DNA of 64,000 nt, from NCBI GenBank assembly GCA_034089705.1, contig JAXDTZ010000014.1:28819-92818 (forward strand), given 5' to 3'. Below the pieces are notes generated by a model. That model did no database searches. It saw only the letters and a program-made list of their open reading frames with translations, and was not told where the DNA came from. The translations under genes and the position numbers were made by a program. Of this stretch, positions 32,809 through 64,000 are shown piece by piece (position 1 is the first letter of the stretch; each line of letters opens with the position of its first letter). Source of the DNA: Candidatus Enteromonas sp. GTDB taxonomy: Bacteria; Bacillota_I; Bacilli_A; RFN20; CAG-826.

Positions 32809-32809
32809 C

Positions 32810-44718: not shown

Positions 44719-47700
44719 ATGAAACCATCGAAATTTCTTCTTGTTTTATCGGCGCTCGGGGCGATGACTCTCGCCTCCTGCTCCGTCGGGACGGATCCGG
44801 CTCCCAGTTCTTCTGAGCCGGTTTCCTCCCTTCCTAGCGACGTTAGCTCCGAAAGTTCGGTTTCCAGCGAATCGAGCGAACCGAGCGAACCCGAGGTCGA
44901 AAAATTCGACATCGTCGACGCCGTTGGCGACCACATCTTCGTCCATGGCCCCGTCCAGGCAGCCGAAGGCGAAGCCGTTTCCTTCCGCATCGACGTCGAG
45001 ATCGGGTATTCCTTCAGCGGAGTTATCGTGGCGAAGGATTCGGAACAAAACGTCCTCGACCTCGCCTTGAACGATGGGGAATACACGTTCACGATGCCGG
45101 CCTCCGCGGTCACCATTTCCGCCGAAACCATGGCCGCTTCTTACCTCCTCTCCTACTCTACTCCGGAAGAGCTTTCCCTCTCTGCTTATGAAATCGTGAA
45201 GGAAACCGAACTCGCGACGGAGGACCGGGAAGCCGTCGCCGGCGTTTACACCGGAACCCTCCAATATTACGACTATGGTTACGCGAATTGTGGACCCCTC
45301 ACCATCACCCTCGGGTACGATGGCTCCATCCACTTTGTGGAAGCCACCAGCGCCAGCGACTCCAGCGTGAAGTATGAAGCCGAAGGCGTTTATGAAGTCG
45401 AATGCCTCGGCGACGATACCTACGTCGTTCGTTTCGACCTCAAAACCGAAACCGGGGTTGCCGTGACTGGAAAGATGAAAATCGTCTCCAAAGTCGTTCC
45501 CGAAAGCGAGGTAGAAGGCGTTAATGTCCCCGAACACCGCGAAAGGACCTACACCGCCTCTTCCACTTACTACCTTGAAGTCAGCGGCAAGAAATACAAC
45601 CAAGGCAGCATTTCCGCCACGGGCGAAGCCGCGGAACTCGATCCGGAAAAAGACGTCTACCGCAAACTCGATGCCCTTCCCCAAGTTTGGGACTATTTGG
45701 ACCACTTCTATCTGAAGTCTTCCATCACTGACGAATACGTCGCCGGCTCCCTTTCGCTGAACGGGGAAGTGCTCGAAGCCAACGAAGAGGGTTATTACCG
45801 CATCGACATGCCGCATCACGCTTCGCGGATCGAATTGACCAAAGCCACCCGTTACGCTCCGATCGTTTCGGAAACCGATTGCCCGGGGCTCGAACTCAAA
45901 TCCTACGTCAAAGTGGTGGACGAACCGGTGGAGGAAGGCGGAGAAGCCACCTACCATTACGAAGAGGTCACCCAAGCCAAATTCAACGACCAAATCTATT
46001 TCAAAGCCGTGGATAAGGCCGACAGCGAAGTCCGTTATGGCTTAATCGGCATGACGGTCACCTATGGCCCGGGTTCGAGCAATTCCGTCAACTCCGTCTA
46101 CTCCATCAAGCTGAACGCCGATGGGTATTACGAATCCACTTGGCTCAAAATGTCCAATATGGATTTCGGCATGAGCGTTTCCTTCGTCGCGAATCCGGAA
46201 CTCCCGGAAAGCGAAGAACGTTTCGCCCTCGGTGCCGCCCTCACGGGTTTCGACTCCTATTCCTCCACAAAGGATTTCGCCGTGAACGAATTCGGCAAAG
46301 TCCTCTTCAACGGTTCGGAATATTACTACTCCACCGATGACATCGCCGAAGACGGCAGCGTCACCATGCACCGCTATACCTATGACGCCAGCCACGACAT
46401 CAAAGCCTACCGTCATAACGGCACCTGGGTTTTCCTCAAAGATTTGTCCAGCAACAAGCTCTCCTACTACGCCATCGGCGAAGCGGGAATTCCCGGCGCA
46501 GAGGGGGAAGAAGACCAAAAACCGTCCTTCTCCTTCTTGATGGATGCCTCGAGCGCTTCTAACGCTTCGACCGCCTTGGTGAACGTCACCCATGCCGACG
46601 GAACCTCTTCTTACGTCCAAATCGCCGACCTCGATCCGGAAACCGGCAAGGATTCCGAAACCGGCGTCGATCACGATGCCAAAACCATCCTCTGGGACGT
46701 AGACGTCGAGATCCTCAACGGGAAAGCGAGCATCGCCGACAAGGATGCCATCTTCGACATCAAGAAGGATGGCGAGATCGTGAGCACCCACATCAATGAA
46801 GGCGGCGTCATCGCCTCCTACGAAAAAGGGCCGAGCGGCACCTTCACCCGCGGTGAAGACGTGATCGTTTCTAACGGTGCGGGCCTCGTCACCTTCAACG
46901 GAGTCAATGTCCTGAGCTCCGCTTATGGCAATAGCGACGAAGGGAAAACCATCTCCTTCCTCGCCAAAGATGGCAATGTCGTTCGCCTCTACACGGTCGT
47001 CGTGGACGAAACCGCGAACACTTTTGCCCCGGCGAGCGGCAAGTCTTATGGAACCCCGGTCACGGGCGTTCGTCGCGGCGGATATTACAGCACCAGCGCC
47101 ACCATCAACTCTTCTAGTTATACGGTGAACCTCGGCGCGACCACCGAAACGGGAGAATTCGCTGAAGAAACCGCCGATGGATGCTATGTAAAAGTCGGTT
47201 GGACCGCTTATATTGGCACCTACAAGGTCAACTCCGATGGAAAAGTCGTCGCAAGCGTCGACGCTTCCGGAAGCACTTACAACTATGTCTTCGACTTCTC
47301 GGATGACGGTGAACTCGCCTTCTTCTACAAAGATGGCGATTCCTCCAAGTTCTACCTCTACTCCACCTTGGCGACGAGTGCCATGTCCTCGTCCAACACC
47401 AAACTCCTCGTTTCGAACTTCGGTTCGAAGAAGGTCTTCGCCTTGGTGCAAAACGGTTCAACCGCCGGCATCAGCGAATCGACCAACGTCCTCGTGCAAA
47501 ACGGATCGGAATACGCGCTCGGTAAGGTAACGCTTAGCGGCGAATTCGCTTCCTGGCATACCGAAGGAGCCACCTTCACTCTCACCGTCAACGGCGCGAC
47601 GAGCGGAGAACTCTCCTATGTCGGCGGGGAAATAAAGGCCAACATCACCGGCGATTACACCGTGGAAGGACACGACAACCCCGTTCACATCGACAATACG

Positions 47701-48273
47701 GGGACGATCACCGTCGATGGAGTGGATTACGTCTTCACGATGAAGGATGATGGGACTTTGAGTTACACCATCATGGATATTCAAGAGGAAGCGGGCAAAA
47801 TCGTGTTCACGACTTACACGGTGACCTACGATGTGGAAGCGAAAACCGCGACCATTGCCCAAACGGGCGTCCGCGAAACCGGGCTCTTCATTCCTTCCGA
47901 TGCCGGAAGCGATACGAGCAAGGTTTGGACGGAATCCGAAGGCGTTTGGACCTCTCCGAGTGGATTTAGCAGCAAAGCCATCTACCTCAACGTCGAATTC
48001 TTCGGCGCGGGGACCTTCTCCTTCCACGCCAAGATTTCTTCCGAGTCCGGGTGGGATTACCTCACCATCCAGACGAAGGCGGCCGGAGCCACTTCCTTCA
48101 CCACCCTTTCTGGATACTCCTCTTCCGAAAAGAAAGCGAATTCCGGGGAAAAGGAATTGGACATCACCATCGAAGTCACCGCTGGCATGGTGGTCCAAAT
48201 CGGCTACTACAAAGATGGCAGCGGAAATTCCGGTTCCGACTGCATCGTCGTCTCCAACATGGTTCTTGCTTAA
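44719..48273 (+). CDS. giant surface lipoprotein (1,184 aa), paralog B (tandem duplicate of 41140..44706)
   Basis: lipobox MTLASCS; collinear similarity to paralog A (KFDIVDAVGDHIFV / KYAIIDDAGDHVFL; AVAGVY; RYAPIV / RYSPIV; WDYLTIQTKAAG…VVSNMVLA); AAAGGAG RBS. Confidence 0.85.
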   Translation: MKPSKFLLVLSALGAMTLASCSVGTDPAPSSSEPVSSLPSDVSSESSVSSESSEPSEPEVEKFDIVDAVGDHIFVHGPVQAAEGEAVSFRIDVEIGYSFSGVIVAKDSEQNVLDLALNDGEYTFTMPASAVTISAETMAASYLLSYSTPEELSLSAYEIVKETELATEDREAVAGVYTGTLQYYDYGYANCGPLTITLGYDGSIHFVEATSASDSSVKYEAEGVYEVECLGDDTYVVRFDLKTETGVAVTGKMKIVSKVVPESEVEGVNVPEHRERTYTASSTYYLEVSGKKYNQGSISATGEAAELDPEKDVYRKLDALPQVWDYLDHFYLKSSITDEYVAGSLSLNGEVLEANEEGYYRIDMPHHASRIELTKATRYAPIVSETDCPGLELKSYVKVVDEPVEEGGEATYHYEEVTQAKFNDQIYFKAVDKADSEVRYGLIGMTVTYGPGSSNSVNSVYSIKLNADGYYESTWLKMSNMDFGMSVSFVANPELPESEERFALGAALTGFDSYSSTKDFAVNEFGKVLFNGSEYYYSTDDIAEDGSVTMHRYTYDASHDIKAYRHNGTWVFLKDLSSNKLSYYAIGEAGIPGAEGEEDQKPSFSFLMDASSASNASTALVNVTHADGTSSYVQIADLDPETGKDSETGVDHDAKTILWDVDVEILNGKASIADKDAIFDIKKDGEIVSTHINEGGVIASYEKGPSGTFTRGEDVIVSNGAGLVTFNGVNVLSSAYGNSDEGKTISFLAKDGNVVRLYTVVVDETANTFAPASGKSYGTPVTGVRRGGYYSTSATINSSSYTVNLGATTETGEFAEETADGCYVKVGWTAYIGTYKVNSDGKVVASVDASGSTYNYVFDFSDDGELAFFYKDGDSSKFYLYSTLATSAMSSSNTKLLVSNFGSKKVFALVQNGSTAGISESTNVLVQNGSEYALGKVTLSGEFASWHTEGATFTLTVNGATSGELSYVGGEIKANITGDYTVEGHDNPVHIDNTGTITVDGVDYVFTMKDDGTLSYTIMDIQEEAGKIVFTTYTVTYDVEAKTATIAQTGVRETGLFIPSDAGSDTSKVWTESEGVWTSPSGFSSKAIYLNVEFFGAGTFSFHAKISSESGWDYLTIQTKAAGATSFTTLSGYSSSEKKANSGEKELDITIEVTAGMVVQIGYYKDGSGNSGSDCIVVSNMVLA

Positions 48274-48288: not shown

Positions 48289-48323
48289 AAAGCCGAGTCC
48301 TTCGAGGCTCGGCTTTTTCTTTT
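48289..48323 (+). terminator. rho-independent terminator after the giant lipoprotein pair
   Basis: AAGCCGAGUC-CUUCGA-GGCUCGGCUU 10-bp stem followed by UUUUUCUUUUCUU. Confidence 0.75.
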
Positions 48324-48451
48324 CTTCGATATTTGCTTCCTTATTTTCCATTGACGTGAATTTTTCAAAACGATATTCCATATTTCTCGCGCGCGTGTAT
48401 GATATTTTTCGTGCGCCCGTTTTGAGCGCTTGTCCATAATCGAGGTCACTT

Positions 48452-49675
48452 ATGAAACGAACTCCATTTCCTTATCTCCTTCTTGCCGGCTTATTGCTTG
48501 TTGGCTGCAACGCTTCTTCCGGGAAAGATAACAATTCCCAATCTTCCGAATCGGTTTCTTCCCTCGTTCCCAGCGTTAGCGAAGAAGAGAGCGCCTCTTC
48601 TGTAGAAGAAACTTCTTCTAATGCGGAAATCCCTAGCGTTTCTTCTTCGCAAGAAGAGAGCGCTGAGATTTCCTCCGAAGAAATCGCTTCTAGCGAAGAA
48701 GCCTCTTCGTCCATGGAAGAAAGCAGCGAAATCACCACTTTCGCCATCGCCAAGAAAACCGCCGGTTTTTCCATCGTCTTCTTGGGCGAAGGATTTGATC
48801 CAAATAAGGTCCAGCTTGGAGAAACCGTTCGTTTTACCTTGAGCGCTTTGGCGGATTATTACGAACTGAGCAAAGTCTATTACGCCACTTCGGACAACCT
48901 CAAAATCGATATCGGCCAAAATGAAGGGGTGTACTCCTTCCCCATGCCAAGCGGGAATATCACCATTCACGTGGAAAGCATCCGGAAATACGGATTAACC
49001 GTCGACTCGCCTTTCGCGACCCTCACCTTCTTGAACGAAGAGGAAACTTATTACAAAAGCGGAACGCGGATTTCCTTCTCGGTTGCCCCCATGGAAGGCT
49101 ATAGCCTCCGCAAAATCGAATACCGGTTCGACACTTCCTCTTTCGAATTGAACCCCACGGAAGAAGGGAACTACTCCTTCTCGATGCCGAGCGCCAACGC
49201 GACCATCGTCGTCACCGCGACCGAAATCATCGATGCCTCCCAAGATCCTTGGGCGGGAAAAGACGTGACTTACGGGGCTGAATTGATCCGAACTTACGAC
49301 CAAAAACTGATATGGACCCTTCATTTCAAGGGAGATGGAACGCTGGATTATCAGTCCCTCCTTTACGTAGATTATGGCGATTATGGCGATTATTACGAGG
49401 CTCCGAACGGGCAATTTGGGCCGGGAAGCATCCTTAGGGCGTGGGAATTCAACAAAATCGCGGCCGAGGAAAAAAACGCGACCTACTCGATCAACGAGGA
49501 AACCGGGTATTGCGAAGTGAGCCTTCCTACCGGTTATGCGCAGAACATGGCCACCGCGTCCTTTGAACTTTCTTCCGAACTTACCAACGGAGTCCCTTCG
49601 AAAATCACCTTGAAGAATTCCTTCTCGAACCACGATTTCGCCCCAGTCAAAGGAACGGTGTTCACCATCCAATAA
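48452..49675 (+). CDS. lipoprotein (407 aa) with two copies of the recurrent ~85-aa module
   Basis: lipobox LLLVGCN; S/E-rich linker; modules ending VYSFPMPSGNITIHVES and NYSFSMPSANATIVVTAT; own promoter-like region (TTGACG … TATGAT) at 48352..48400. Confidence 0.8.
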   Translation: MKRTPFPYLLLAGLLLVGCNASSGKDNNSQSSESVSSLVPSVSEEESASSVEETSSNAEIPSVSSSQEESAEISSEEIASSEEASSSMEESSEITTFAIAKKTAGFSIVFLGEGFDPNKVQLGETVRFTLSALADYYELSKVYYATSDNLKIDIGQNEGVYSFPMPSGNITIHVESIRKYGLTVDSPFATLTFLNEEETYYKSGTRISFSVAPMEGYSLRKIEYRFDTSSFELNPTEEGNYSFSMPSANATIVVTATEIIDASQDPWAGKDVTYGAELIRTYDQKLIWTLHFKGDGTLDYQSLLYVDYGDYGDYYEAPNGQFGPGSILRAWEFNKIAAEEKNATYSINEETGYCEVSLPTGYAQNMATASFELSSELTNGVPSKITLKNSFSNHDFAPVKGTVFTIQ

Positions 49676-49687: not shown

Positions 49688-52600
49688 ATGAAAAAAACCA
49701 TTTTATTTTCTTTAGCCGCCGCTTCATTGCTCCTTCTTGCTTCTTGCGGAGGAAACAAGCCCGAAGCGCCTTCTAGCGAAGATTCTTCTTCCGAATCCAT
49801 CGTGAAAAAATACACCGTCCATTTCGACTTGAACGGAGGGGTGTTGCCAAGTGGAACGACCATCGAAGACCAACTCGTGGAAGAGGGGCATTGGGCGACC
49901 AAACCCTTGATTTCCCCGAGCAAAGCCCACAGCACCTTCTTGGGTTGGTTCACGGAGGACGGGTTCCAATGGAACTTCATGTCCCCCGTCATGGGCAACC
50001 TCAACTTGTTCGCCCATTATTCGGTGAACGAGGAATCCAAAGTCACCTTGACCTTCAACCCGAATAACGGCGAATCCTCTTACACGGTCGATACCTTCAT
50101 CGGGGATACCATTTCCACGAAGATCCCCTCCAAAGAAGGATTCGTCTTCAAAGGTTGGTATTACGGGGAAGGGAACCGCTTCACCGGTTACGTTTCCGAA
50201 GAAGTGGCCAAAGCCAAAACGTTGACGGCCCAATACGTCCAACAGGATTTCAACTACTATTTCGAGGTGAACGAAGACGACACGGTGACCATCACGGGCA
50301 TCCGCGACGTCAACTCCGTCGTCGTGTCCTTCCCGAACCAAATCAACGGGCGCGCGGTTACCCGAATCGGGAAAACCGCCCTCCAAAGTCGGATTTACGT
50401 CGAATCGGTCACCATTCCCGCCTCCGTGAAAGAGATCGAACCCCAATTTTGCAATGGGGCGAGGAGAATGGCGAGTTTCGAAGTCGAAGCCGGGAATACG
50501 GCGTACAAAGCGGAAAACGGAATTTTGTACAATGCCGATTTCACCGTGCTCGTCCGCGTGCCGGCGAAAGCCTTTTTGAGTTCTTCTTGCGTCATCCGTT
50601 CCTCGGTCAAGGAAATCGGGGCGTATGCCTTCTACGACCAAAAAGACGAAGGCATCAATAACGTCACCTTCCCCGAAACCTTAGAAACCATCGGGGAATA
50701 CGCCTTCTATGGCTGGAACAAAGCCACGAACCTCGCCTTCCCGGATTCCCTGAAAACCATCGGAAGCCACGCCTTCTGCGCGTTTGACACCGCCGAAAAG
50801 CTCACGATCAAGTGGGGAAATGGGCTAGAGGAAATCGGGGAGGCCGCCTTCTTCGGCCAATACGTCCACGACATCCTCGTCCTTCCCGAGGGATTAAAAA
50901 AAATCGGGGTCCACGCGTTCTCTTGCACGAATGGGGGCAACGCCATCACGAGCGTCGTCTTGCCTTCGAGCCTTGAAACCTTCGAAGGCGGGGTCTTCGC
51001 CAATTGCTATGGCATCGCCAAAGTCTCGATGAACGGGGAAAGCCCCGCCTACAAAGTCGAGGACAACATGCTGCTTAGCAAAGACGGCAAAAAACTCGTT
51101 TGGGTTCCTAGCGACCACAAGGGCAACATCGTCATCCCCGAGGGCGTGGAAGAAATCGGGGAATACGCCTGCGGGGAAATCCGGTACTACGATTCCCTGA
51201 CCTTCCCTTCCACCTTATCCAAAATCGCCCCTTACGCCTTCTTCTACAACGCGACCCTCACCAGCATCGAAATCCCTTCTTCGGTCAAAGAGATCGGGGA
51301 AAGCGCCTTCGACCGTTGCGAAAAGCTCGCTTCGGTCCAATTGAACGAAGGGCTCCAGCGCATCGGGCGGTACGCCTTTGCCGAGATTTCCGCTTCGAGC
51401 ATCTCCTTCCCCTCAAGTTTGAAAACGATCGGGGAGAACGCGTTCTTCGGATGCCGTTTCTCTTCCATCTCCTTCGCGGAAGGACTAGAAGAAATCCAAG
51501 ACGGGGCCTTCTATTTCCTCACCTCGAGTTACGAAGAAGATTCCTACGATTCCTATACTTCCTCTTTGGTGAATCTCTCCTTCCCCAATAGTTTGGTTTC
51601 CATCGGCGACCGCGCGTTTGCTAACCACGAAGCCCTCAAATCCATCACCTTTGGGAATGGATTGACCCACTTGGGGAGCGAAGCCTTCAGCGGGGCGAAG
51701 CCCACCCAATTGAGCGTTGCTTCGGGAGGAAACCTCGTCGTGAAAGACCTCGGGCTCTATTCGAGCGACTTCTCGACCCTCTTCTACGAATCTCCGGGAA
51801 AAACCGGCGAACTCTCCTTGCCTAGCGGCTTGAAGACGATCGCCCCCTACGCGTTAAGCAAAGTCGAAGTCACGGGAATCACCCTCCCGAATACCTTGGA
51901 AATCATCGGGGAAGGGGCGTTCTATGGCGCGTTTGACCGTAGCAGCGACATCTCTTTGACCTTCCCTTCTTCCTTGAAAGAAATCGGGGAAGGGGCGTTC
52001 TATGGCGCGAAAACCGATTCCATCGATTTCTCCACCGCCACCTCCTTAGAGACCATCGGGGCTTCCGCGTTCGAAATGAACGACGGCATTCAGGATCTCC
52101 ATTTCGCTTCCTCCTTGAAGGAAATCGGCAAAGATGCTTTCTATGCCTGCCCTACCACGAGCCTGCATTTCTCCGAAGGCCTCCTTTCGATCGGGGAATC
52201 CGCCTTCTTCGGGAACAAAAACTTGGGAGGGGAAGTCGTCCTCCCCGCCTCCTTGACTTCTTTGGGCGATTCGGTCTTCGGATCTTGGGGGAACACGACC
52301 GCTTCGGGGAACGAAATCACTTCCTTGCGGGTCGCGGAAGGATCTTCTTCCTTCTTTAGCGAGAACAACGTTGTCTACAACGCTTCGAAAACCGATGTTT
52401 ACGCGGTTGCGGGAAAGGCTAGCGGAACCATCTCCTTGCCTAGCACCGTGACGACCATCCATCCCTTCGCCTTGGCCGACGCGACTTTGGTCAGCGGCTT
52501 CTCTTTGCCCGAAGGCCTCCTCCACATTGGGGATTACGCCTTCTCCGGGGACGTGAGCGTTTCCCTCCTCACCCTTCCTTCGACCGTTTTGACCATGGGC

Positions 52601-52732
52601 GAACGCCTCTTCCATTCCTGGGGGACGAACCAAACGGTCAAAATCCCCCATAGCCTCGATTATTGCGAACGGCATTACCAATCCTATTGGAGGGATTCGA
52701 GCCGGGCGAACTTCGTATACGACGGGGAATGA
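49688..52732 (+). CDS. BspA-like leucine-rich-repeat (LRR_5) surface lipoprotein with two N-terminal Listeria-Bacteroides (Flg_new) repeats
   Basis: lipobox LLLASCG; YTVHFDLNGG…GWF…W.F and TLTFNPNNG…GWYY repeats; >20 tandem ~23-aa IG.YAF…SL repeats. Confidence 0.85.
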   Translation: MKKTILFSLAAASLLLLASCGGNKPEAPSSEDSSSESIVKKYTVHFDLNGGVLPSGTTIEDQLVEEGHWATKPLISPSKAHSTFLGWFTEDGFQWNFMSPVMGNLNLFAHYSVNEESKVTLTFNPNNGESSYTVDTFIGDTISTKIPSKEGFVFKGWYYGEGNRFTGYVSEEVAKAKTLTAQYVQQDFNYYFEVNEDDTVTITGIRDVNSVVVSFPNQINGRAVTRIGKTALQSRIYVESVTIPASVKEIEPQFCNGARRMASFEVEAGNTAYKAENGILYNADFTVLVRVPAKAFLSSSCVIRSSVKEIGAYAFYDQKDEGINNVTFPETLETIGEYAFYGWNKATNLAFPDSLKTIGSHAFCAFDTAEKLTIKWGNGLEEIGEAAFFGQYVHDILVLPEGLKKIGVHAFSCTNGGNAITSVVLPSSLETFEGGVFANCYGIAKVSMNGESPAYKVEDNMLLSKDGKKLVWVPSDHKGNIVIPEGVEEIGEYACGEIRYYDSLTFPSTLSKIAPYAFFYNATLTSIEIPSSVKEIGESAFDRCEKLASVQLNEGLQRIGRYAFAEISASSISFPSSLKTIGENAFFGCRFSSISFAEGLEEIQDGAFYFLTSSYEEDSYDSYTSSLVNLSFPNSLVSIGDRAFANHEALKSITFGNGLTHLGSEAFSGAKPTQLSVASGGNLVVKDLGLYSSDFSTLFYESPGKTGELSLPSGLKTIAPYALSKVEVTGITLPNTLEIIGEGAFYGAFDRSSDISLTFPSSLKEIGEGAFYGAKTDSIDFSTATSLETIGASAFEMNDGIQDLHFASSLKEIGKDAFYACPTTSLHFSEGLLSIGESAFFGNKNLGGEVVLPASLTSLGDSVFGSWGNTTASGNEITSLRVAEGSSSFFSENNVVYNASKTDVYAVAGKASGTISLPSTVTTIHPFALADATLVSGFSLPEGLLHIGDYAFSGDVSVSLLTLPSTVLTMGERLFHSWGTNQTVKIPHSLDYCERHYQSYWRDSSRANFVYDGE

Positions 52733-52734
52733 TT

Positions 52735-53880
52735 ATGAAATGGTTTTCTTTTCTTCCTAGCCTCGCCTTGCTCCTTTCTTCTTGCGAGCAGCCCTCTTCT
52801 CCTTCTTTCACCACCTTTCACCAAAACATCGTTTCGGGCGATTCCACGGTTCTTTTCGAGGTGAAAAAAGACGCAGAAGGCAAGATAACGGCCCCCGCGG
52901 TCCCTTTATACAAGAACTACGTATTCGACGGATGGTACCCCTCCCCCAAAGGCGGGGAGCGATTCGATTTTTCTACCCCAGCCCCGAGCGATTTGTACGC
53001 CCATTGGGTCGTCTACAGTGATTTGAGCGACGGAGAGAAACTCACCCGTTACATCTCCCGCATCCAAGACCTCTGCCCTTTGGTTTCCTCGACCCGAGGG
53101 TATGTGGAAACCGCCGTCCAATACAGCACCGCGGAAGGGATTTTCACTTCCGTCGACATCTTGCGCGCGAAGCGGTACCAAGACATCACGGTCATCGACC
53201 ATTATTACCCGAAAGTCTGCGATTCTTCGAGCGATCTTTCTAACGAGGAGATCCAAGCCGGATACACCCCTGAGCAAATCAACGAAAAGAACCGCACCCT
53301 CACCGAGCAAGACTTTTTCGAGAATGGGAATTTCTACACCATCTTCGATTACAACGAAACCCATCCCAACTTCGACTCCGGCTCCCAAGACGGGAAATAC
53401 GTGAGCAAAGGAAAAGAAGATGAAGTCGACGCTTTCTTGAACATCGATTTCTCCAGTTATTTCATGGGATACCTCTCCCGCCTTGCGGGGCTAGTGAACG
53501 CGGAAGATTCCCCCATGGCCCCCGTTTCCTCCTTAAACGAGGAATTCGGGAACAACAGCTACTGGATCTCCGAAGTCAACGTCTCCGCCTTGGACGAGAC
53601 CAAGGAAAGTGGGGCTTTTGCCTTCGCTTACACCTCTTCCGCCCAAATGACCAGCGGAAACCTTTGGACCGAGCTCATCCAATCAAGCGTCGAATTCGCT
53701 TTGGTGAAAGGGAAAATCCTCCACGCGCAGGTGTCCAAAATGGTTTCCTATTACGTCGATGGGGATTGCATGATGTACTCCAACAGCCTCTCCGTCTTCG
53801 ATTTCGAAGCCTGCGAGGCCTACCTCCCCTTCGAAGGGGAACGCTTCTCCCCCGCCTCTTACCCCACCTACGAAGAATAA
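52735..53880 (+). CDS. lipoprotein (381 aa) with one Listeria-Bacteroides-type repeat
   Basis: MKWFSFLPSLALLLSSCE lipobox; …YVFDGWYPSP…LYAHWV repeat; 2 nt after the LRR protein stop. Confidence 0.72.
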   Translation: MKWFSFLPSLALLLSSCEQPSSPSFTTFHQNIVSGDSTVLFEVKKDAEGKITAPAVPLYKNYVFDGWYPSPKGGERFDFSTPAPSDLYAHWVVYSDLSDGEKLTRYISRIQDLCPLVSSTRGYVETAVQYSTAEGIFTSVDILRAKRYQDITVIDHYYPKVCDSSSDLSNEEIQAGYTPEQINEKNRTLTEQDFFENGNFYTIFDYNETHPNFDSGSQDGKYVSKGKEDEVDAFLNIDFSSYFMGYLSRLAGLVNAEDSPMAPVSSLNEEFGNNSYWISEVNVSALDETKESGAFAFAYTSSAQMTSGNLWTELIQSSVEFALVKGKILHAQVSKMVSYYVDGDCMMYSNSLSVFDFEACEAYLPFEGERFSPASYPTYEE

Positions 53881-53990
53881 GCCATTCGTTTTGCTGTTTC
53901 TTCGCTCCAATCATCCTTCCATTCTTTTTCCAAAGAAATGCGGTTTGGTTTTCGGAAAGAACCCATTCGATTAAGAGGTTTTGACGAAAG

Positions 53991-54027
53991 CAAAAGACGA
54001 ATCCCCATTCGGAATTCGTCTTTTTTG
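53991..54027. terminator. bidirectional rho-independent terminator between the lipoprotein array (+) and the Hpt gene (-)
   Basis: CAAAAGACGAAU-(11-nt loop)-AUUCGUCUUUUUUG. Confidence 0.7.
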
Positions 54028-54067
54028 TTGATGCGTAAAGAATGGAGGGTTGTTTGGCAAACGAGGC

Positions 54068-54415
54068 TCAATCGAGTTGCTCGATCGCCCGTTCGGTTCT
54101 TTGGAATTCTTCGACCAATGCCCGATAGGCATCTTGGTAACCTACTAAAACCCGAGGACGGAGGATTTCGGTGAGCTCGATCGCTTTTTTCGAGAGTTCG
54201 TCCAGGTGGAGGTTGAGCGACACGCCTTTTAGGGTATGCGCGGCGCGGAAGGCGGTTTCGGGGTCGCTTTCGGCAATGCCTTTGGCGAGGTTTTTCATCG
54301 ATTCGTCCTTCTGGAGCATCTTTAAGAGGCGGGCGATCACCGCGTCGCTGCGGACGGCGGAGAAAATCGCGTTGTAGTCTCCGTGGAGTTCTTCGTAAAC
54401 TTGTTTCGGCGTCAT
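54068..54415 (-). CDS. stand-alone histidine phosphotransfer (Hpt) domain protein
   Basis: 115 aa; four-helix Hpt with AAHTLKGVSLNL phospho-His motif; ATGA overlap with the upstream response regulator. Confidence 0.8.
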   Translation of the reverse strand: MTPKQVYEELHGDYNAIFSAVRSDAVIARLLKMLQKDESMKNLAKGIAESDPETAFRAAHTLKGVSLNLHLDELSKKAIELTEILRPRVLVGYQDAYRALVEEFQRTERAIEQLD

Positions 54416-56808
54416 GCTTCTTCTCCTTCGTCGATGATGTGGAAGGTCCCTTTGCTTTCCTTGGCGAGGTAGAGGGCGGAGTCGGCTTTTTCGAATAGCT
54501 CGGCGACTCTTCCTCTCCCACGGACGGCTCCCGCGGAGGCCTTCAAGGCGAGCCCTTGGACGGACTCGGCGCGGATATGGGACAAGATGGATTCGAGTTT
54601 GGTTTCTAGGACGCGTCGCGGCATGTCCTCGAATAAGAGGAGGAATTCATCCCCGCCATACCGGATGATCTCGTCTTCCGCGCGAACGCAGGAGCGGATC
54701 GCGTCCACGACTTTTTTGAGGGCTTCGTCCCCGGCTTCGTGGCCGTAAGTGTCGTTGATTCTTTTGAAGTCGTCCATGTCGAGGATGGCAAGGCAATAAT
54801 TTCCGATCCGGTCCTTGGCTTTTTCGTCGTAAAACCGGCGGGTTTTGCATCCTAGCGTAGAATCGCGGTATAAGGCATAGGAAAGCGCGGCGACCGAATA
54901 GAGGCCTTCGTCTTCCTTAGAGAAGGAAGCGACGGAATCTTCGTCGATCCGCGAAATCATTTCCAGGGTGTAGGGCGCATTGAGGATCGTCAAAGGACGG
55001 GAAACCACGAAATAGAGTTCCCGGGCGTGGAGACGGAAGGCGCGGGTGGTTTTCTTGGGAATGAGCACGGGCTTGCCTTTGATGGCTTGATCATCCCAGA
55101 AGGGGGTGAAATCCATCGTGGCGAGGAATTTCCCTTCTTCGAGGCGGTACTCCTTCTTGAGTTCGTAGGAAATCAAACGGACCAAATCGAAGTTCTGTTG
55201 TTCCGCGTGGAGAAGGCTTTCGGCCTGCTCGAGGCTCAGATTCTCTTCGTCGAGAAGAGTTGGGGAATCGATGCGGGAAGAACGGGAAGAGAGTTCGTCG
55301 AAAGCGTGGACGATTTCGGAAGCGTCGGCGATTCTGCCGATGGCGAGGTAGGCCGAGCGGCGTTCGGAGAAAATGGCTTCCCCGATGACGTGGAACCATT
55401 TTTCCCCATGGGAGAAATGCAAGAGGAGATCAAATTCGAAGGAGGGCTCTTCCGGGGTCGTTTGCTGAATCGCTTTTTCCACGGTTCGGGCGGCTTCTTG
55501 GTTGCGGGAACCGAAAACCGAAGAGACCGAGAAGGGGTCGTTGATGGTCAAGGGGAAGCCGAACTTCTTTTGGGAAGCGCGGTTGAAGGTGATGGTTTGG
55601 TGGTCTCCGAGTTCGAACCGGAACCACGCTTCGTCGGTGAGGTTCGCGAATCGGTCGCGGAGTTGGCGTTCTTGCAAAAGCAAGGAGGCATCCCGTTCGT
55701 CGCTTACGGAAGCATCCGAAGACCAAGCGGAAGCGTCTTCCTCTCCGGAAGCGTCGAGTTGAGCGATGATTTCGGGAATCTTGTCCTGAATGGCTTCGAA
55801 GCATTGGAGCAAGAAGGGGGAGAATGCCCCGCATTCCCCGTTTTTGATCATGGCGATGGCTTCTTCGTGAGAGAAGGCGCGCTTATAGCAACGGACGCTG
55901 GTGAGGGCGTCGTATACATCGGCGAGGCCCACGATTTGGGCCCAAACGGGAATGGCGTCGCCTTTCAGGCCGTCGGGATATCCCCTTCCGTCGTAGCGTT
56001 CGTGGTGATGGAGGCAGATATCGTGGGCGAAACGGACCAATTTCTCGTTTTGGAAGGCCCCGAGGCTTTCGAGGAGCTCCGCGCCTTTGCGGGAATGGGT
56101 CTTTATGATTTCGAATTCCTCTTGGGTCAGACGGCCCGGCTTATTGAGGATCTCTTCGGGGATGGAAATCTTCCCGATGTCGTGGAGGGAAGAAGCCATC
56201 TTGATCAAGGGGATGTCCCCACGAGAAAAGGGATATGCTTGGGTGGATTGGAGGACTTGCTCGCAAAGGAGCTCGGTCAAAGCGTTGATGTGCAAGACGT
56301 GGAGCCCGCTTTCGGCGTTGCGGAATTCGACGATGTGGGAAAGGATCGCGATCATGAGTTCGTTGTCCTTTTTCCTCGCGGCGAGTTGGGCGTTCACTTC
56401 CTCCATGAGAGCTTTTTGCTTGGCGAAGAGGAGAATGGTGTTTTGGATGCGGCGGAGAACGATTTCGCGTTCATAGGTGGAACGGGGGATGTAATCCACC
56501 GCCCCGAGGTCATAGGCCCGTTTCATGGTTTCGCTGCCGGTTTCGGCGGAAATCATGATGACGGGGGTTTCTTCGATATAGCCTCTCTCCCTCATGAGGC
56601 GCAGGACTTCTAGGCCGTCGCATCTTGGCATGATGATGTCGAGCAAGATGACCGAGATTTCCTCTTTGTGGGCTTCGTAGACTTCCAGGGCCTCTTGGCC
56701 GTCTTTCGCCTCAAGCACCCCAAAACCGCCTTCGAGCATGGTCGAAAGAATGACGCGATTGATTTCTTCGTCGTCTACGATTAACACGGTTTTTCGATTG
56801 CTGGCCAT
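54412..56808 (-). CDS. response regulator with REC, HD-GYP phosphodiesterase and GGDEF diguanylate cyclase domains
   Basis: 798 aa; REC (VLIVDDEEINR…LLDIIMPRCDG), HD-GYP (HDIGKI…HHERYDGRGYPDGL), intervening sensor-like region, GGDEF (RYGGDEFLLLF). Confidence 0.85.
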   Translation of the reverse strand: MASNRKTVLIVDDEEINRVILSTMLEGGFGVLEAKDGQEALEVYEAHKEEISVILLDIIMPRCDGLEVLRLMRERGYIEETPVIMISAETGSETMKRAYDLGAVDYIPRSTYEREIVLRRIQNTILLFAKQKALMEEVNAQLAARKKDNELMIAILSHIVEFRNAESGLHVLHINALTELLCEQVLQSTQAYPFSRGDIPLIKMASSLHDIGKISIPEEILNKPGRLTQEEFEIIKTHSRKGAELLESLGAFQNEKLVRFAHDICLHHHERYDGRGYPDGLKGDAIPVWAQIVGLADVYDALTSVRCYKRAFSHEEAIAMIKNGECGAFSPFLLQCFEAIQDKIPEIIAQLDASGEEDASAWSSDASVSDERDASLLLQERQLRDRFANLTDEAWFRFELGDHQTITFNRASQKKFGFPLTINDPFSVSSVFGSRNQEAARTVEKAIQQTTPEEPSFEFDLLLHFSHGEKWFHVIGEAIFSERRSAYLAIGRIADASEIVHAFDELSSRSSRIDSPTLLDEENLSLEQAESLLHAEQQNFDLVRLISYELKKEYRLEEGKFLATMDFTPFWDDQAIKGKPVLIPKKTTRAFRLHARELYFVVSRPLTILNAPYTLEMISRIDEDSVASFSKEDEGLYSVAALSYALYRDSTLGCKTRRFYDEKAKDRIGNYCLAILDMDDFKRINDTYGHEAGDEALKKVVDAIRSCVRAEDEIIRYGGDEFLLLFEDMPRRVLETKLESILSHIRAESVQGLALKASAGAVRGRGRVAELFEKADSALYLAKESKGTFHIIDEGEEA

Positions 56809-57143: not shown

Positions 57144-57845
57144 CTATTTCATTAATTTTTGAATGGCGTACGTGGCCAGCAAGATGCCCGCGGAAGCCGG
57201 GGCGAAGGGATTGGAAGCCGGGGTGCGGGGGTTATTGTCCACGGGATGGACCGGGGTGAGGGGCGGTTCTTCGGAATAAACGACCGGATAGAAAGGGAGG
57301 TTCCTTTCCTTGGAGAGTTTCCGCATCACCTTGGCGAGGGGATCCCCTTTCGTGGAATAGATGTCCCCCACCACAAAACGTTCGGGATGCTCTTTGTTCC
57401 CGGCCCCCATGCAGGAAATGATGGGGACGCGGTGTTCCAAACAGGTTTGGATGAGCAACAATTTGCTGGATACCGAATCGATCGCGTCGAGGACGAAATC
57501 GAAGGAAGAGAAATCGAATTCCCCGATGGTGTCTTCCGAAAAGAAGAGGGAATAAGGATGGACGATCGTTTCGGGGAAGATATCTAGGACTCTTTGACGG
57601 GCCACTTCGGCTTTCTTGCAAGACAAGGTCTTCCGCGTAGCGAGGATTTGGCGGTTTAAGTTGCTTGGCTCGAAAGAGTCAGCGTCCACCAAGGTCAATT
57701 CCCCGATTCCAGCGCGGGCGAGGATTTCCAGGGCATATCCCCCGACTCCCCCTAGGCCGAAAAGGGCCACGTGGGCGGAACTCAGTTTCTGCAACGCCTC
57801 TTCCCCGTACAAAGCGAGGGTTCTTTCCTTCCCTAGCGATTCCAT
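57144..57845 (-). CDS. tcdA: ThiF/MoeB-family tRNA threonylcarbamoyladenosine dehydratase (TcdA/CsdL-like)
   Basis: GLGGVGGYALEILARAGIG Rossmann motif; start at M24 (ATG 57845) with GGAGG RBS; first codons overlap the end of the upstream gene. Confidence 0.78.
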   Translation of the reverse strand: MESLGKERTLALYGEEALQKLSSAHVALFGLGGVGGYALEILARAGIGELTLVDADSFEPSNLNRQILATRKTLSCKKAEVARQRVLDIFPETIVHPYSLFFSEDTIGEFDFSSFDFVLDAIDSVSSKLLLIQTCLEHRVPIISCMGAGNKEHPERFVVGDIYSTKGDPLAKVMRKLSKERNLPFYPVVYSEEPPLTPVHPVDNNPRTPASNPFAPASAGILLATYAIQKLMK

Positions 57846-60673
57846 GGTTCCTCCAAGAAGAGGAGAGCGCAAAGGCCGACGGCTTTGCTGGAGAGTAGCC
57901 TCCCGGAAGCGCAAAAGGCCTTCATTTCTCCGGATTTGGATTTTAAAGAAAGGTCAAACGCGTCGAATTCTTCCGTTTTCCCTTCCGGGACCTCCTTCTT
58001 TTGGAGGCGCGAAAGAATCTCTTTCCCTTGTTCTGGGCAAAGGGAGAGGAAGTCTTCGTTGCGTTGGAGGAAATCGGATTCCCCTTCAAATCCAAGAGCG
58101 GTCCAAAGGTATTCGTTGGAATAGATGATCGATCCATCCCCTAGAGCGGAGAAATAGAGGATTCCTCCGGGGATGTTGGAAAGGAAATCCGCGCGTTCGT
58201 AGACCGAAGATACGTCGCGGAACAAAGCGAAATAAACCTCGGATTCCCCTTCGTTTTTGAGGTAATGGGTTTCCACGTTCAACACGATGGGCTTTTTCGG
58301 GGTTTGGAAGCGGATGGCGGCGGATCTCCCATTCTGGAAGAAGAGAGAAGCGAACTGCTCGCGGTCTTCTTCGCTGCAGCCGATTTTCGAGAAATCCCCA
58401 ATCGAAGGATCCCCTTCGTTCCAATCAAGGGAAAGGAGGCGCACGAAGGTGAGATTGGCGCTGGTTAGGCGGACTTCCCCTTCCCGTTTTTCGAAGAAGG
58501 CGATGGGGCCAACGAGGGAAGCCACCGCTTCGTCGGGATAATCGACGTCGATGAGGATTCTCGCCACGTCGCTTCGGCGGAGGCGGTGGAAGGGCAATTC
58601 AAACAGAGCGTTTTTCCTCGGTTCGTAGGCTTCCATCAAGGCCTCGAATTCGTTTTCGGGCAAAGGGAGGGAGAAATAGAACCCTTGGATAACGTCGCAC
58701 CCGCTGCCGCGGAGGAAGAGGAATTGTTCGCGGGTTTCCACCCCTTCGGCGATGACCGTCATCCCCAAATCCTGAGCCAAATCCATGACGTGGGTCAACG
58801 TGATTTCCGCGCGGGGGTTTCCGATCAAATCGATGAGGGATTTGTCGATTTTGATCACGTCGAAATGGAGGATGTCCATGGAGTAGAGCGAAGAATACCC
58901 GGCTCCGAAATCGTCCATGTCGAGGACGAATCCTTTTTGGTAGAGGGCATCCGCAAAATCCTTGACGTCTCGAGAAGAGATGGCCGCGGTTTCGGTGATT
59001 TCCAAGGGGACGAGGTTCAGCGGGACCCCATATTCTTTGGCGATTTGGCTATAGACTTCCGCGACGGGAAATTGGAACAAGGTGTTTCGCGACAGATTGA
59101 CCGAGATGGGAAAGAGTTTTCTCCCCAAGGCGATGTTCTTGGCTTGGAAAGCGCAGACGGCGGAGAAGACATAACGATCCATCGCGATGATTCGTTCGTC
59201 GCGTTCGAATACCTTGATGAATTCGGTCGGGGAGAGGATTTCCCCGTTCTTGATCCAGCGAACCAAGGCTTCCGCGCCAAAGAGTTCTCCTGTTTTGGCG
59301 GTGTATTTCGGTTGGTAATACAAAACGAATTCTCGGTTTTCGATGCCGGATTCGAAATCCTCTTGGAATTTGAGTTCGCGAAACAGATCGTCTTGCATCG
59401 TCGGGGAATACACCGCGGCGGCAATGGGGGTTTTCCCGTTCAAGGAAGAAAGGGCCAAACGCCCCCGATTGATGGCTTCGTTGAGGGAAATGCCTGCGGG
59501 GAGGCTCTTCACGATGCCGAACCGGAAATGGAGGTTCCGCAAGGGGGCGTGAAGGGTTATTCGATCTTTGGATTCTTCGATGGTTTGGAGCGAGATGCGG
59601 TCATTGGAATGGGCCAACAGGCAAATCCGATCCCCTTCGTAGCGCCCGACGAAGATGGCTCCGGGGGTGAGGTAGCAGCATTTGGCGAGGTATTGGATCA
59701 CCGCGTCTCCGCTAGAAAGGCCGTAGACGTTATTGATCGTTTTGAGATCCACGATGTCGGCGAGGATCAAATCCAACGCCTCGTCTTTGGCGGAAGAGAG
59801 ATAGTGTTCCGCTTTCGTGACGAAAGCTTGGCGGGTGAGGATTCCCGTGAGTTCGTCCCGTTCGAGGGAAGTGATCTTGTTCTCCTCTTGTTGGATCAGC
59901 ACGATATTGCGGGCGAATCGAACGATGGCCTCTTCGCTTCGGGAAGAGGGTTCGGCGCAGATGGCCCCGAAAGAAGAAAGGAGAGAAACTTGTTCTTCGG
60001 TTTGGGAATCCAAATAGCAAAGGACAGGCAGGTTATTTAGTAGCGGGCATTGGCTTTTGTGGCGGATGAAGCGATAGATGTCCTCGGTAAGGGAAGGGGC
60101 GAAGAAAAGGAAGGCGGAATATTTGTTGTGGTCTTTTTCGATTTGACGGAAGGACTCCTGGGTGAGTTCGAAGGGAGTCACTTCAAAGGATTGCTTCAAA
60201 AAAGAACTGACGGGGACGAGATGGGAGTCATAGACGAGCAGGGATTGTTCGTTTCCCCCAAAGCCGGTGAGGCGGCTGAGGGAACGCGAAAGGACGTAGG
60301 AATCTTCATAGCCGAAACCCACGATCGCCTTTTTGGAGTCGTCTCCTTTCCGGACGGCTTTGGCCTTGATGAAATGGATGCCGTCATCTTTTACAATGCG
60401 GTAATGCAGGGTGAAGGTGGGGACTTCGGAGATCAGGGCTAGGCAGTTCTTGGGATCGAACGAAGCGAGGAATTTTTCCTTGTCCCCGGGATAGACGATG
60501 CGTTCCGCGTATTCGTAAACGAAGGAAGAGAGGTCGCTTTTTTGGCCATCTTGGTGCAAGGGGCTTTGATTTCCTTTCACAAAAGTGAACGAAAGCGTCT
60601 CGAAATCGACTTCGACGACATCCTCGAAATCCAACGAGAGATAACAAGAAGGGGACATGTTCTGGGAATCCAT
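57833..60673 (-). CDS. PAS - degenerate GGDEF - EAL - PAS-PAS c-di-GMP phosphodiesterase
   Basis: ~946 aa; GGDEF motif degenerated to RYEGDRI; intact EAL signatures (AEALVRW, EITETAA, DMDDFGAGYSS, EGVETREQ, QGFYFS); PAS-like segments at both ends; track ORF starts at upstream TTG 60691. Confidence 0.85.
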   Translation of the reverse strand: MDSQNMSPSCYLSLDFEDVVEVDFETLSFTFVKGNQSPLHQDGQKSDLSSFVYEYAERIVYPGDKEKFLASFDPKNCLALISEVPTFTLHYRIVKDDGIHFIKAKAVRKGDDSKKAIVGFGYEDSYVLSRSLSRLTGFGGNEQSLLVYDSHLVPVSSFLKQSFEVTPFELTQESFRQIEKDHNKYSAFLFFAPSLTEDIYRFIRHKSQCPLLNNLPVLCYLDSQTEEQVSLLSSFGAICAEPSSRSEEAIVRFARNIVLIQQEENKITSLERDELTGILTRQAFVTKAEHYLSSAKDEALDLILADIVDLKTINNVYGLSSGDAVIQYLAKCCYLTPGAIFVGRYEGDRICLLAHSNDRISLQTIEESKDRITLHAPLRNLHFRFGIVKSLPAGISLNEAINRGRLALSSLNGKTPIAAAVYSPTMQDDLFRELKFQEDFESGIENREFVLYYQPKYTAKTGELFGAEALVRWIKNGEILSPTEFIKVFERDERIIAMDRYVFSAVCAFQAKNIALGRKLFPISVNLSRNTLFQFPVAEVYSQIAKEYGVPLNLVPLEITETAAISSRDVKDFADALYQKGFVLDMDDFGAGYSSLYSMDILHFDVIKIDKSLIDLIGNPRAEITLTHVMDLAQDLGMTVIAEGVETREQFLFLRGSGCDVIQGFYFSLPLPENEFEALMEAYEPRKNALFELPFHRLRRSDVARILIDVDYPDEAVASLVGPIAFFEKREGEVRLTSANLTFVRLLSLDWNEGDPSIGDFSKIGCSEEDREQFASLFFQNGRSAAIRFQTPKKPIVLNVETHYLKNEGESEVYFALFRDVSSVYERADFLSNIPGGILYFSALGDGSIIYSNEYLWTALGFEGESDFLQRNEDFLSLCPEQGKEILSRLQKKEVPEGKTEEFDAFDLSLKSKSGEMKAFCASGRLLSSKAVGLCALLFLEEPWNR

Positions 60674-60705
60674 AGCACAAGAAAAATCCAACGATAAAAG
60701 TATAC

Positions 60706-62792: not shown

Positions 62793-63091
62793 AGCCTCCT
62801 TCTTTTGGCTTTCATTTTAAATTTTCAATGCCGTTTTTACTACTCTTATTCCATGAGTGTCTTTGTCTTCCGACGCAGCGGACGCGTGGAAAGGAATCGA
62901 GCCAATGGCAATCCCTCTTTTTTTCGGCCGTATGCGCTAAAAAAAGAAAAGTCGTGGCTTTGGGCGGAATAAGCCCCTGATTTCCGTATCAAGGGCTAGA
63001 TTCTAAAATTGTTTGTAAATAACAATATAAAATAGATAGGCTAAATGCCCTAGGTGTAACAACAAATTTGATCCACTGGTGGAAGATAAGA

Positions 63092-63520: not shown

Positions 63521-63561
63521 TATTTACAACCTCCCGATAGCCATTTTATTTACCCAGTGTT

Positions 63562-63894: not shown

Positions 63895-64000
63895 CGGTTT
63901 ATTGTTTTTTGAAAAAATTAATCATTGCTCTTTAATGCTGCATATTCCTCTTCCAAACTTAAAACAAAGGACTCATTAGGGTAAAGATGTAAATCAAAAT

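Follow-up and report, generated by a model that had tools for sequence, protein, structure and literature searches.

A conserved BspA-type leucine-rich repeat lipoprotein and its partner gene in Candidatus Enteromonas

The gut-associated bacterium Candidatus Enteromonas encodes a 1,014-aa lipoprotein, LP8, that probably serves as a lipid-anchored, BspA-type ligand-binding platform displayed at the cell surface, working with the neighbouring lipoprotein LP9 as a surface complex for attachment or ligand capture in the gut. Both genes lie in the window, the 64,000-nucleotide stretch of DNA that we analysed. In itself LP8 is unremarkable, one member of a protein family of great size, and it already carries the NCBI annotation "leucine-rich repeat protein". 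The new point is that it always directly precedes a small partner lipoprotein whose second domain, in structural models, appears to resemble lipid carriers.

The window belongs to a metagenome-assembled genome of Candidatus Enteromonas, a mollicute-like bacterium placed in the Bacilli and predicted to have no cell wall (PMC8035907, PMC10868615). Candidatus Enteromonas is GTDB UBA733 in order RFN20, family CAG-826 (PMC8035907), and the best sequence match of LP8, at 99% identity, is annotated Candidatus Enteromonas sp. Peptidoglycan deficiency is predicted for CAG-826 at the family level and RFN20 lacks srtA/B (PMC10868615); going by the published family-level prediction, Candidatus Enteromonas is probably wall-less. 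Since the lineage is predicted to lack both peptidoglycan and sortases, a lipid anchor is the expected route of surface display. The published RFN20/CAG-826 genome survey deduced "reduced surface protein expression" from the absence of sortases (PMC10868615). The organism is gut-associated, with metagenome-assembled genomes from pig, rumen and chicken, and the genomes of Candidatus Enteromonas are small, at about 1.2 Mb.

LP8 begins with the features of an exported lipoprotein. Its gene (49688..52732, plus strand, stop codon included), supported by the open reading frame, profile searches, orthologues and a structural model, starts at an ATG that an AAGGAG ribosome-binding site precedes by 8 nt. 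The N-terminus, MKKTILFSLAAASLLLLASC followed by GG, is a signal peptide in which KK and a hydrophobic stretch lead to the lipobox L-A-S-C (LLASC) at Cys20; we took as a lipobox the pattern [LVI][ASTVI][GAS]C in about the first 35 residues, after basic and hydrophobic regions. The initial annotation had described a 1,014-aa lipoprotein with a lipobox here, and its coordinates proved exact. Signal peptide and lipobox (aa 1-20) and a Ser/Glu/Pro-rich tether (aa 21-40) together occupy 49688..49807 on the plus strand; the tether is assigned as disordered from its sequence and from pLDDT values below 50 across residues 1-38 of the AlphaFold model. Two Flg_new / InlB B-repeat domains follow (aa 41-113 and 118-185; 49808..50242, plus strand). 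Pfam PF09479 matches them in 2 stretches at 64.5 bits (E=9.9e-18; gathering threshold 27), TIGR02543 and the B-repeat part of the internalin models also match the region, and the AlphaFold model contains two beta domains there with the beta-grasp B-repeat fold.

The rest of LP8, about 825 aa (aa 190-1014; 50255..52729, plus strand), is an LRR_5 solenoid, as judged by Pfam PF13306, repeat count, model and Foldseek. PF13306 matches in 7 stretches at 380.4 bits (E=2.1e-115; gathering cut-off 27.7). Some 25 IGxxAF-type repeat cores, 22-26 aa apart, are arranged in four blocks linked by beta-hairpin connectors of the form N..Y....G.LY..D...L...P, and the units, of about 23 aa with a ...P.S[VL]..IG..AF..C core, stand in multiple tandem copies that at the DNA level are diverged repeats with 69-78 nt spacing. 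The AlphaFold model (pLDDT 88.9, and above 90 for most 10-residue blocks of the LRR region) shows a stalk, then a solenoid of about 30 strands, and LP8 ends directly after the last LRR and its cap. The top Foldseek matches, 4gt6, 4h09, 4fs7, 4cp6 and 6mlx, each have a probability of 1.00. A Pfam scan of the whole protein returned LRR_5 and Flg_new, both above cut-off, and a sub-threshold LRR_8 match, with no Big_2 and no CTD; the two N-terminal Flg_new repeats and the more than 20 LRR_5 repeats that the initial annotation had read from the translation are both there.

This architecture is conserved across about 52 full-length orthologues (35-79% identity) in one fixed form, and because these orthologues exist the domain pattern is not a product of chance. 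A signal peptide followed by Cys is found in all 52; the Cys is of lipobox type by regular expression in 49 and sits in a near-lipobox in the other 3. Only the linker varies in length (41-153 aa), the Flg region measuring 152-163 aa and the LRR region 802-857 aa. Within the repeats, P, I, G, A and F at the scaffold positions show little or no variation across the orthologues. The exposed beta-strand positions are weakly conserved (majority frequency 0.2-0.5), so a single conserved ligand-binding face is not evident.

The same constancy bears on two other readings of the locus. A mollicute-like host, and the expansion of BspA-like families in Ca. Mycoplasma girerdii, would suit a variable surface antigen for immune evasion, comparable to mycoplasma Vlp/Vsp or to the Ca. 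M. girerdii families themselves. The BspA-like proteins of Ca. M. girerdii vary in length and are mostly anchored by a C-terminal transmembrane helix (PMC4206474), unlike the fixed-length LP8 orthologues. No tandem repeats, homopolymer tracts or invertible elements were found at the LP8 5' end or promoter, the LRR units are old and diverged (60-80% DNA identity), the window holds one LRR_5 gene, and repeat number is constant across orthologues. A variable antigen is already largely refuted by these observations, and we give it almost no credence. Fixed architecture, single-copy-like orthologues and no detected phase-variation signal, unlike typical variable adhesins, could also reflect a structural coat, in which LP7, LP8, LP9 and the rest of the surrounding lipoprotein array would build a layer that protects the cell or gives it shape in place of a wall, rather than acting mainly in specific ligand binding. 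The predicted wall-less state of the lineage and the run of nine consecutive lipoprotein genes fit such a coat, but LRR solenoids are classic binding modules and no self-assembly domains were detected, and we consider it very unlikely.

LP8 is the middle gene of a three-gene unit. The first gene encodes LP7, a 407-aa lipoprotein (48452..49675, plus strand; open reading frame and lipobox LLVGC) that ends 12 nt before LP8 and consists of a Ser/Glu-rich linker, a part with weak B-repeat-like similarity (Flg_new_2, 19 bits, below the Pfam cut-off) and an uncharacterised C-terminal part. Homologues of LP7 lie directly 5' of the LRR gene in at least ten related loci. Upstream, the unit is bounded by a strong intrinsic terminator after LP6 (48289..48316, plus strand) with an 11-bp G+C-rich stem and a T-run (MFE -17.2 kcal/mol, z = -2.8). 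Downstream, a terminator-like hairpin with T-runs on both strands (53992..54027) lies between the convergent genes LP9 and Hpt, within the MFE structure of 53878-54070 (z = -3.55). Because these terminator hairpins bracket the three genes, LP7-LP8-LP9 is a unit of its own, loosely tied to the array.

LP9, the third gene product, is a 381-aa lipoprotein (52735..53880, plus strand; lipobox LLSSC, Cys17) recognised from its open reading frame, Pfam match, lipobox and gene order. Its start codon lies 2 nt past the LP8 stop and its ribosome-binding site, GGGGAA, within the LP8 3' end; the two genes are probably translationally coupled. An LP9 homologue stands directly 3' of the LRR gene in all 15 related loci examined, with a gap of at most 3 nt, or an overlap, in the six that have called genes. 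LP9 carries one Flg_new / B-repeat domain (aa 25-93; 52807..53013, plus strand), as had been read from its translation, and a lineage-restricted C-terminal domain (aa 95-381; 53017..53877, plus strand) with no Pfam or PDB sequence match. What the initial annotation overlooked is that LP9 is more than a further repeat protein: it is tightly coupled to LP8 as an obligate partner.

In the model the LP9 C-terminal domain forms a beta-sheet, curved or open, together with helices, and Foldseek lists the open barrels of LolA, LolB, LppX and RseB together with the lipid-transfer beta-barrels of MTP, ApoB and vitellogenin. We took an unclosed antiparallel beta-barrel with a helical lid and a hydrophobic cavity to define a LolA-like domain. 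TM-scores to LolA-like proteins reach at most 0.41, at 5-11% identity, and outer-membrane beta-barrels score nearly as well; the modelled likeness may therefore be one of generic curved beta-sheet geometry. The domain is also about 100 aa larger than LolA, LolB, LppX or RseB, has no sequence similarity to them and, unlike the LolA/LolB systems, occurs in a monoderm without the Lol pathway.

These observations bear on a role in nutrient or hydrophobic-ligand capture. The LRR arm would dock on a supplier of the ligand, for instance a host membrane, a lipoprotein particle, a vesicle or a hemoprotein; through its LolA-like domain, LP9 would then acquire a lipid or another hydrophobic molecule for a cell that has no wall and a reduced genome. 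The Foldseek matches, the strict coupling of the LRR and LP9 genes and the small Candidatus Enteromonas genomes are consistent with this, as is the part that HupY, an LRR_5 protein, plays in heme utilisation (PMC6593403). We nevertheless regard it as improbable. In a more specific form, which we rate as a long shot, the strictly conserved, coupled pair of a long LRR_5 lipoprotein and a small lipoprotein with a B-repeat and then a LolA-like domain, often preceded by LP7, would be a two-lipoprotein machine: the LRR arm would attach to the surface of a host or microbe, and the partner would pull out or carry a hydrophobic ligand (lipid, sterol or acyl chains of lipoproteins). If true, such a machine would be previously undescribed, would operate in peptidoglycan-less RFN20 gut Bacilli and would parallel in function the surface proteins with which mycoplasmas scavenge lipids.

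By comparison with known systems, LP8 belongs with the BspA / LRR_5 family (PF13306, "BspA-type" or TpLRR), which includes T. pallidum TpLRR (6MLX), T. denticola LrrA and the BspA-like proteins of Ca. M. girerdii. It shares their repeat family (380 bits, 22-26-aa IGxxAF units) and solenoid fold class and is likewise a predicted surface protein, in a family of host-associated bacteria that include mollicutes. Tannerella forsythia BspA, from a diderm, carries Big_2 domains and a T9SS C-terminal sorting domain after its LRRs; LP8 instead bears a lipobox at the N-terminus, along with two B-repeats and a partner gene of its own. Attachment, co-aggregation and TLR2/gp340 binding are described for BspA-family proteins, fibronectin and fibrinogen binding is also reported for BspA, and BspA-like families occur in mollicutes (PMC4206474). 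The best matches of LP8 are structural-genomics LRR_5 proteins of fellow gut commensals: 4FS7 and 4FDW (Bacteroides ovatus), 4FD0 (B. caccae), 4GT6 (Faecalibacterium prausnitzii) and 4H09 (Eubacterium ventriosum), at E=9e-35 to 8e-19 by sequence and E=9e-14 to 4e-7 in Foldseek. They are uncharacterised single blocks of about 380-400 aa that give no mechanistic help, whereas LP8 chains four blocks.

Also comparable are PcpA (S. pneumoniae choline-binding protein A, 4CP6) and streptococcal HupY/LrrG (NF047961), LRR_5 solenoids on a monoderm surface and documented adhesins, HupY acting in heme utilisation as well. PcpA is held by choline-binding repeats and LrrG/HupY via LPXTG and sortase; LP8, in contrast, is a lipoprotein, and its lineage is reported to have no sortases. 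Curated models reject LP8 as a HupY/LrrG equivalog (230.1 bits against a cut-off of 1250; NCBIfam NF047961) and as a class 1 internalin (InlA/InlB/InlH; 46.2 against 1600 bits for the internalin_A model NF033189, 21.8 against 1050 for NF033188), and the internalin model matches are confined to the B-repeat portions. No ligand can be inferred for LP8. Compared with Listeria internalin B (B-repeat, PDB 2Y5P / 7PV9), the domain order is reversed, the B-repeats of LP8 preceding its LRRs; these are LRR_5 rather than the 22-aa internalin type, and lack the internalin cap and inter-repeat domain, and LP8 is lipid-anchored instead of held by GW modules or LPXTG. A comparison with BspA and InlB-class proteins, which the initial annotation had proposed, upholds the family shared with BspA and neither the BspA architecture nor the internalin models.

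A rival reading makes LP8 a host-specific adhesin or invasin that would bind host cells or extracellular matrix in the manner of BspA, InlB or LrrG, with the nine-gene array as a host-interaction locus. The resemblance to surface-binding proteins on which the initial annotation drew is legitimate, the nearest solved relatives being LRR_5 surface proteins of gut commensals, PcpA and TpLRR, and an adhesion role for LP8 would be reasonable; host-cell or matrix binding is an analogy at the family level. LRR_5 and B-repeat domains, the precedents of BspA, PcpA and TpLRR and the gut origin of the genomes all speak for a host adhesin. The failed curated models, an LRR type unlike that of internalins (the B-repeat alone matching InlA/InlB) and orthologues that come from very different hosts, yet vary at exposed residues, speak against it.

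The array adds little to that case. LP8 and LP9 are the last two of nine consecutive plus-strand lipoprotein genes (33721-53880), all nine with a lipobox, and this linkage had been taken to support adhesion for the whole locus. LP7, LP4 and LP5/6-family genes are indeed often near the LRR-partner pair in relatives, but profile searches of the other seven proteins gave no adhesin domains, only weak Flg_new_2 matches; the terminator at 48289-48316 separates LP5-LP6 from LP7-LP8-LP9; and two relatives have the pair without the array. Taken with the evidence above, we judge a dedicated host adhesin unlikely.

We favour instead a more general surface complex. LP8 would be produced from the LP7-LP8-LP9 transcription unit, exported by Sec, processed by Lgt and Lsp at Cys20, as the lipobox suggests, and tethered to the outer leaflet of the single membrane. 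Its disordered Ser-rich linker and two beta-grasp B-repeat domains would form a stalk holding out the rigid, roughly 825-aa LRR_5 solenoid as a binding platform for an extracellular ligand. LP9, with its one B-repeat and lineage-specific beta-rich domain, would most likely act with LP8 as a surface complex, a partnership suggested by gene order. In the gut LP8 would most likely serve to attach the cell or to capture a ligand; candidate targets are mucus or epithelium, other microbes, and particles. Two points weigh against this reading: the exposed LRR positions are weakly conserved, and the roles of LRR_5 proteins are diverse, heme utilisation by HupY among them (PMC6593403).

Apart from its partner cassette and its lipoprotein route, LP8 is an ordinary case in a family annotated by pipelines. 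The uncultured RFN20/CAG-826 bacteria, whose genomes are small, are common in animal guts. The locus shows a sortase-free route: big binding proteins, among them a conserved BspA-type LRR protein some 1,000 aa long, are apparently presented as lipoproteins. With its conserved cassette of LRR gene and partner, it offers a tangible and testable starting point for learning how these wall-less commensals make contact with what surrounds them.

The leucine-rich repeat (LRR) gene LP8 (49688-52732, + strand), called as an ORF with an ATG start, encodes 1,014 aa and follows an AAGGAG ribosome-binding site with an 8-nt spacer. Its N-terminus, MKKTILFSLAAASLLLLASC and then GG, reads as a typical lipoprotein signal peptide with Cys20. 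Against Pfam, LP8 scored 380 bits for LRR_5 (E=2e-115, 7 stretches) and 64.5 bits for Flg_new (2 stretches), with LRR_8 sub-threshold. We counted ~25 IGxxAF-type units in the protein at a spacing of 22-26 aa; in the DNA the repeats are diverged (60-80%) and lie 69-78 nt apart. ORF, Pfam matches and unit count agree with the initial annotation, which had described a lipobox protein with two Flg_new and more than 20 LRR_5 repeats, and both domains score above cut-off. Antisense ORFs over LP8 and its partner gene LP9, for example 49724-50641 (-, 305 aa) and 52046-52681 (-, 211 aa), were judged spurious because they translate into Arg/Gly-rich sequence, the expected outcome opposite a genuine gene at ~53% GC, and because the + frame is the conserved one.

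In an AlphaFold2 model of LP8 based on 52 orthologues (pLDDT 88.9, pTM 0.73), residues 1-38 are disordered, small beta domains occupy 41-113 and 118-185, and a solenoid of ~30 strands extends from ~residue 190 to the C-terminus. Four beta-hairpin connector segments (N..Y....G.LY..D...L...P), typical of the LRR_5 family, break the solenoid. By sequence and fold, the nearest solved LRR_5 proteins are structural-genomics entries from Bacteroides, Faecalibacterium and Eubacterium (4FS7, 4GT6, 4H09, 4FD0, 4FDW), along with pneumococcal PcpA (4CP6) and T. pallidum TpLRR (6MLX). LP8 corresponds to roughly four blocks of these proteins in a chain, and its sequence, repeat pattern and fold make it a bona fide LRR_5 member.

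More specific identities were rejected. LP8 does not have the architecture of BspA itself, being without its Big_2 domain or CTD. NCBIfam returned sub-threshold similarity only: to HupY/LrrG, at 230 bits against a cut-off of 1250, of which LP8 is not an equivalog; to Gli349; and to internalins, through the B-repeat (Flg_new) part alone. LP8 is not an internalin. The combination of Flg_new with LRR_5 is itself common in public data, and many database matches of LP8 carry both.

LP8 belongs to a stable orthologous group. We found ~52 full-length orthologues (35-79% identity, 94-100% coverage, 1,014-1,122 aa), all with Flg_new, LRR_5 and a signal peptide followed by Cys. The best database match, at 99% identity and already in nr, is labelled [quoted passage not shown]; other family labels are again Ca. 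Enteromonas sp., Bacilli or Bacillales bacterium, "uncultured Erysipelotrichaceae" (rumen RUGs) and Clostridium sp. CAG:568. In every member the Flg region measures 152-163 aa and the LRR region 802-857 aa; the one part that varies in length is the post-lipobox linker (41-153 aa). This is not an adhesin family that expands or contracts. Not every member of the lineage is limited to a single LRR_5 lipoprotein at such a locus: in one related locus (L005), the same lipoprotein array begins with a second LRR_5 + Flg_new gene (1-3645, +; 1,370-aa product), which extends over the locus start and lies ~6 kb 5' of the LP8 orthologue (41% identity).

A search for phase-variation and recombination features came up without notable tandem repeats, simple-sequence or invertible elements, or an invertible promoter, and a role as a variable antigen is essentially excluded. 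Exposed LRR strand positions vary among orthologues. Conservation is highest in the first B-repeat and first LRR block (mean majority frequency 0.60-0.62) and lower in later blocks (0.50-0.52). Analysis of the concave face across orthologues revealed no clear binding patch. A structural surface coat is very improbable.

Of all neighbourhood features, the pairing of the LRR gene with LP9 is the most consistent. In five neighbourhoods found via LP8 orthologues (L002/L003, L004, L005, L006 and L007), the LRR gene is followed, at a spacing of 3 nt or less or with overlap, by a lipoprotein gene whose 354-407-aa product aligns with LP9 over its full length. An LP9-first scan of species-representative genomes yielded 11 loci, and in 10 of the 10 with upstream DNA an LRR gene directly preceded the LP9 homologue. 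Immediately 5' of the LRR gene, at least 10 loci carry a homologue of LP7 (48452-49675, +), a 407-aa lipoprotein.

LP9 (52735-53880, +) is a 381-aa lipoprotein with the lipobox LLSSC. Its best start is the ATG at 52735, ~5 nt after a GGGGAA that lies within the LP8 3' end. Its single Flg_new repeat, expected from the initial annotation, scores 30.3 bits against a cut-off of 27; outside this B-repeat we found no Pfam and no PDB match. Sequence relatives of LP9 are solely 350-407-aa Flg_new proteins of the same kind of MAGs. An exhaustive HMM search with the full-length profile, B-repeat unmasked, gave 10,579 matches, mostly giant multi-Flg_new proteins, with ~11 full-length matches among the best 150. 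A word-indexed search with the C-terminal domain alone recovered nine proteins, which sets a lower bound on family size.

Foldseek comparison with PDB libraries offers a lead: the predicted structure of the LP9 C-terminal domain resembles LolA, LolB and RseB. If this model-based likeness extends to function, the locus might be a hydrophobic-ligand capture system employing LP9, a reading we consider distinctly unlikely. That LP8 and LP9 would form a two-lipoprotein machine for both docking and hydrophobic-ligand capture is more doubtful still. Our limited literature search found no description of the obligate LRR-LP9 (+ LP7) cassette in RFN20/CAG-826 or of the LolA-like look of the partner.

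How far does this linkage reach into the nine-gene array? A strong terminator follows LP6 (48289-48316), and a hairpin with T-runs on both strands follows LP9 (~53992-54027). Between them, only 12 nt separate LP7 from LP8 and 2 nt LP8 from LP9. Together with gene order in relatives, these signals indicate that the relevant unit is LP7-LP8-LP9 rather than the whole array. A consensus promoter scan of 48317-48451 gave nothing convincing. The initial annotation had tied the pair to the array and saw in this support for adhesion or host interaction by the whole locus. Linkage holds in that LP7 homologues often lie near, as do LP4 homologues (before LP7 in four loci) and LP5/LP6-family genes (close by in five, in either orientation); it fails in that the terminator splits LP6 from LP7-LP8-LP9 and that in L002 and L006 the pair otherwise stands between unrelated genes. 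We regard a specifically host-directed adhesin locus as unlikely.

The array is also not a paralogous family. In an all-against-all BLASTP of its nine proteins, the only clear paralogues were LP5 and LP6 (31% identity over full length), so the LRR gene is no diverged copy of a neighbour. The array proteins besides LP8 and LP9 matched no Pfam or NCBIfam family except weakly Flg_new_2, at 25.8 bits in LP1 (33739-35661; above cut-off) and 19 bits in LP7 (below). LP5 and LP6 (41140-44706 and 44719-48273, +) are tandem lipoproteins of ~1,185 aa, likewise without a family. Theirs is a large family, uncharacterised, that is linked to the cassette: homologues adjoin the LRR-partner pair in L002, L006, L004, L008 and L010, sometimes convergently. 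BLAST links the N-terminal parts of LP5 and LP6 to LP7, and from sequence the array members may share a design with a Ser-rich tether, then a B-repeat stalk and then a variable head.

Other features of the window adjoin this locus. Directly upstream of the first lipoprotein (gap ~56-74 nt), 30956-33664 (+) encodes an ABC ATPase (ABC_tran + DrrA C-terminal domain) and two ABC2_membrane_6 permeases, ABC-2 transporter genes that may be co-transcribed with LP1-LP4. Convergent with the array is a cyclic-di-GMP signalling cluster (54068-56808 and 57833-60691, both -): genes for an Hpt protein and for a response-regulator/HD-GYP (HD_5)/GGDEF protein, and after them one for a 952-aa protein with GGDEF/EAL-like motifs by eye. 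The 190-nt LP9-Hpt spacer (53878-54070) is strongly structured (MFE -60.1 kcal/mol, z = -3.55, 0/200 shuffles), and 21-nt inverted repeats (53907-53927 / 54037-54057, 86% complementary) enclose its terminator hairpin. The spacer has no Rfam match, and the 64-kb window contains no Rfam family or tRNA. G+C falls to 37% at 62001-64000, against 50-58% elsewhere. Besides small ORFs for membrane or unknown proteins, this segment carries a gene for a 309-aa lipoprotein (61863-62792, -), and it may be of foreign origin or reflect an assembly junction. The strongest AT skew (-0.298) lies at 22001-24000, where long ORFs overlap on both strands (23289-25184, -; 23388-25472, +).

The analysis shows the genes with their domains and lipoboxes, the fold class, the signals of an operon, the conservation of the gene pair and the taxonomic placement. 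The best-supported reading of LP8 is a lipid-anchored surface binding module. We infer that it is surface-exposed, forms a complex and binds a ligand. A flexible Ser-rich tether would carry a two-domain B-repeat stalk, which would bear the long rigid LRR_5 platform as the binding part. LP8 would be co-produced with LP9 and LP7 and would probably act jointly with both. By analogy with BspA, PcpA and LrrG/HupY, adhesion is its most likely role.

This reading suits the organism. Candidatus Enteromonas is GTDB genus UBA733 (order RFN20, family CAG-826), and the type genome of one species measures 1.2 Mb at 57% GC (PMC8035907). A genome survey predicted that CAG-826 bacteria are peptidoglycan-deficient and do not sporulate, and it reported RFN20 without srtA/B sortases (PMC10868615). 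In a cell that, by this family-level prediction, would be wall-less and sortase-less, a lipid anchor is the obvious surface hold for a large protein, a display route that fits the nine consecutive lipobox proteins of the window.
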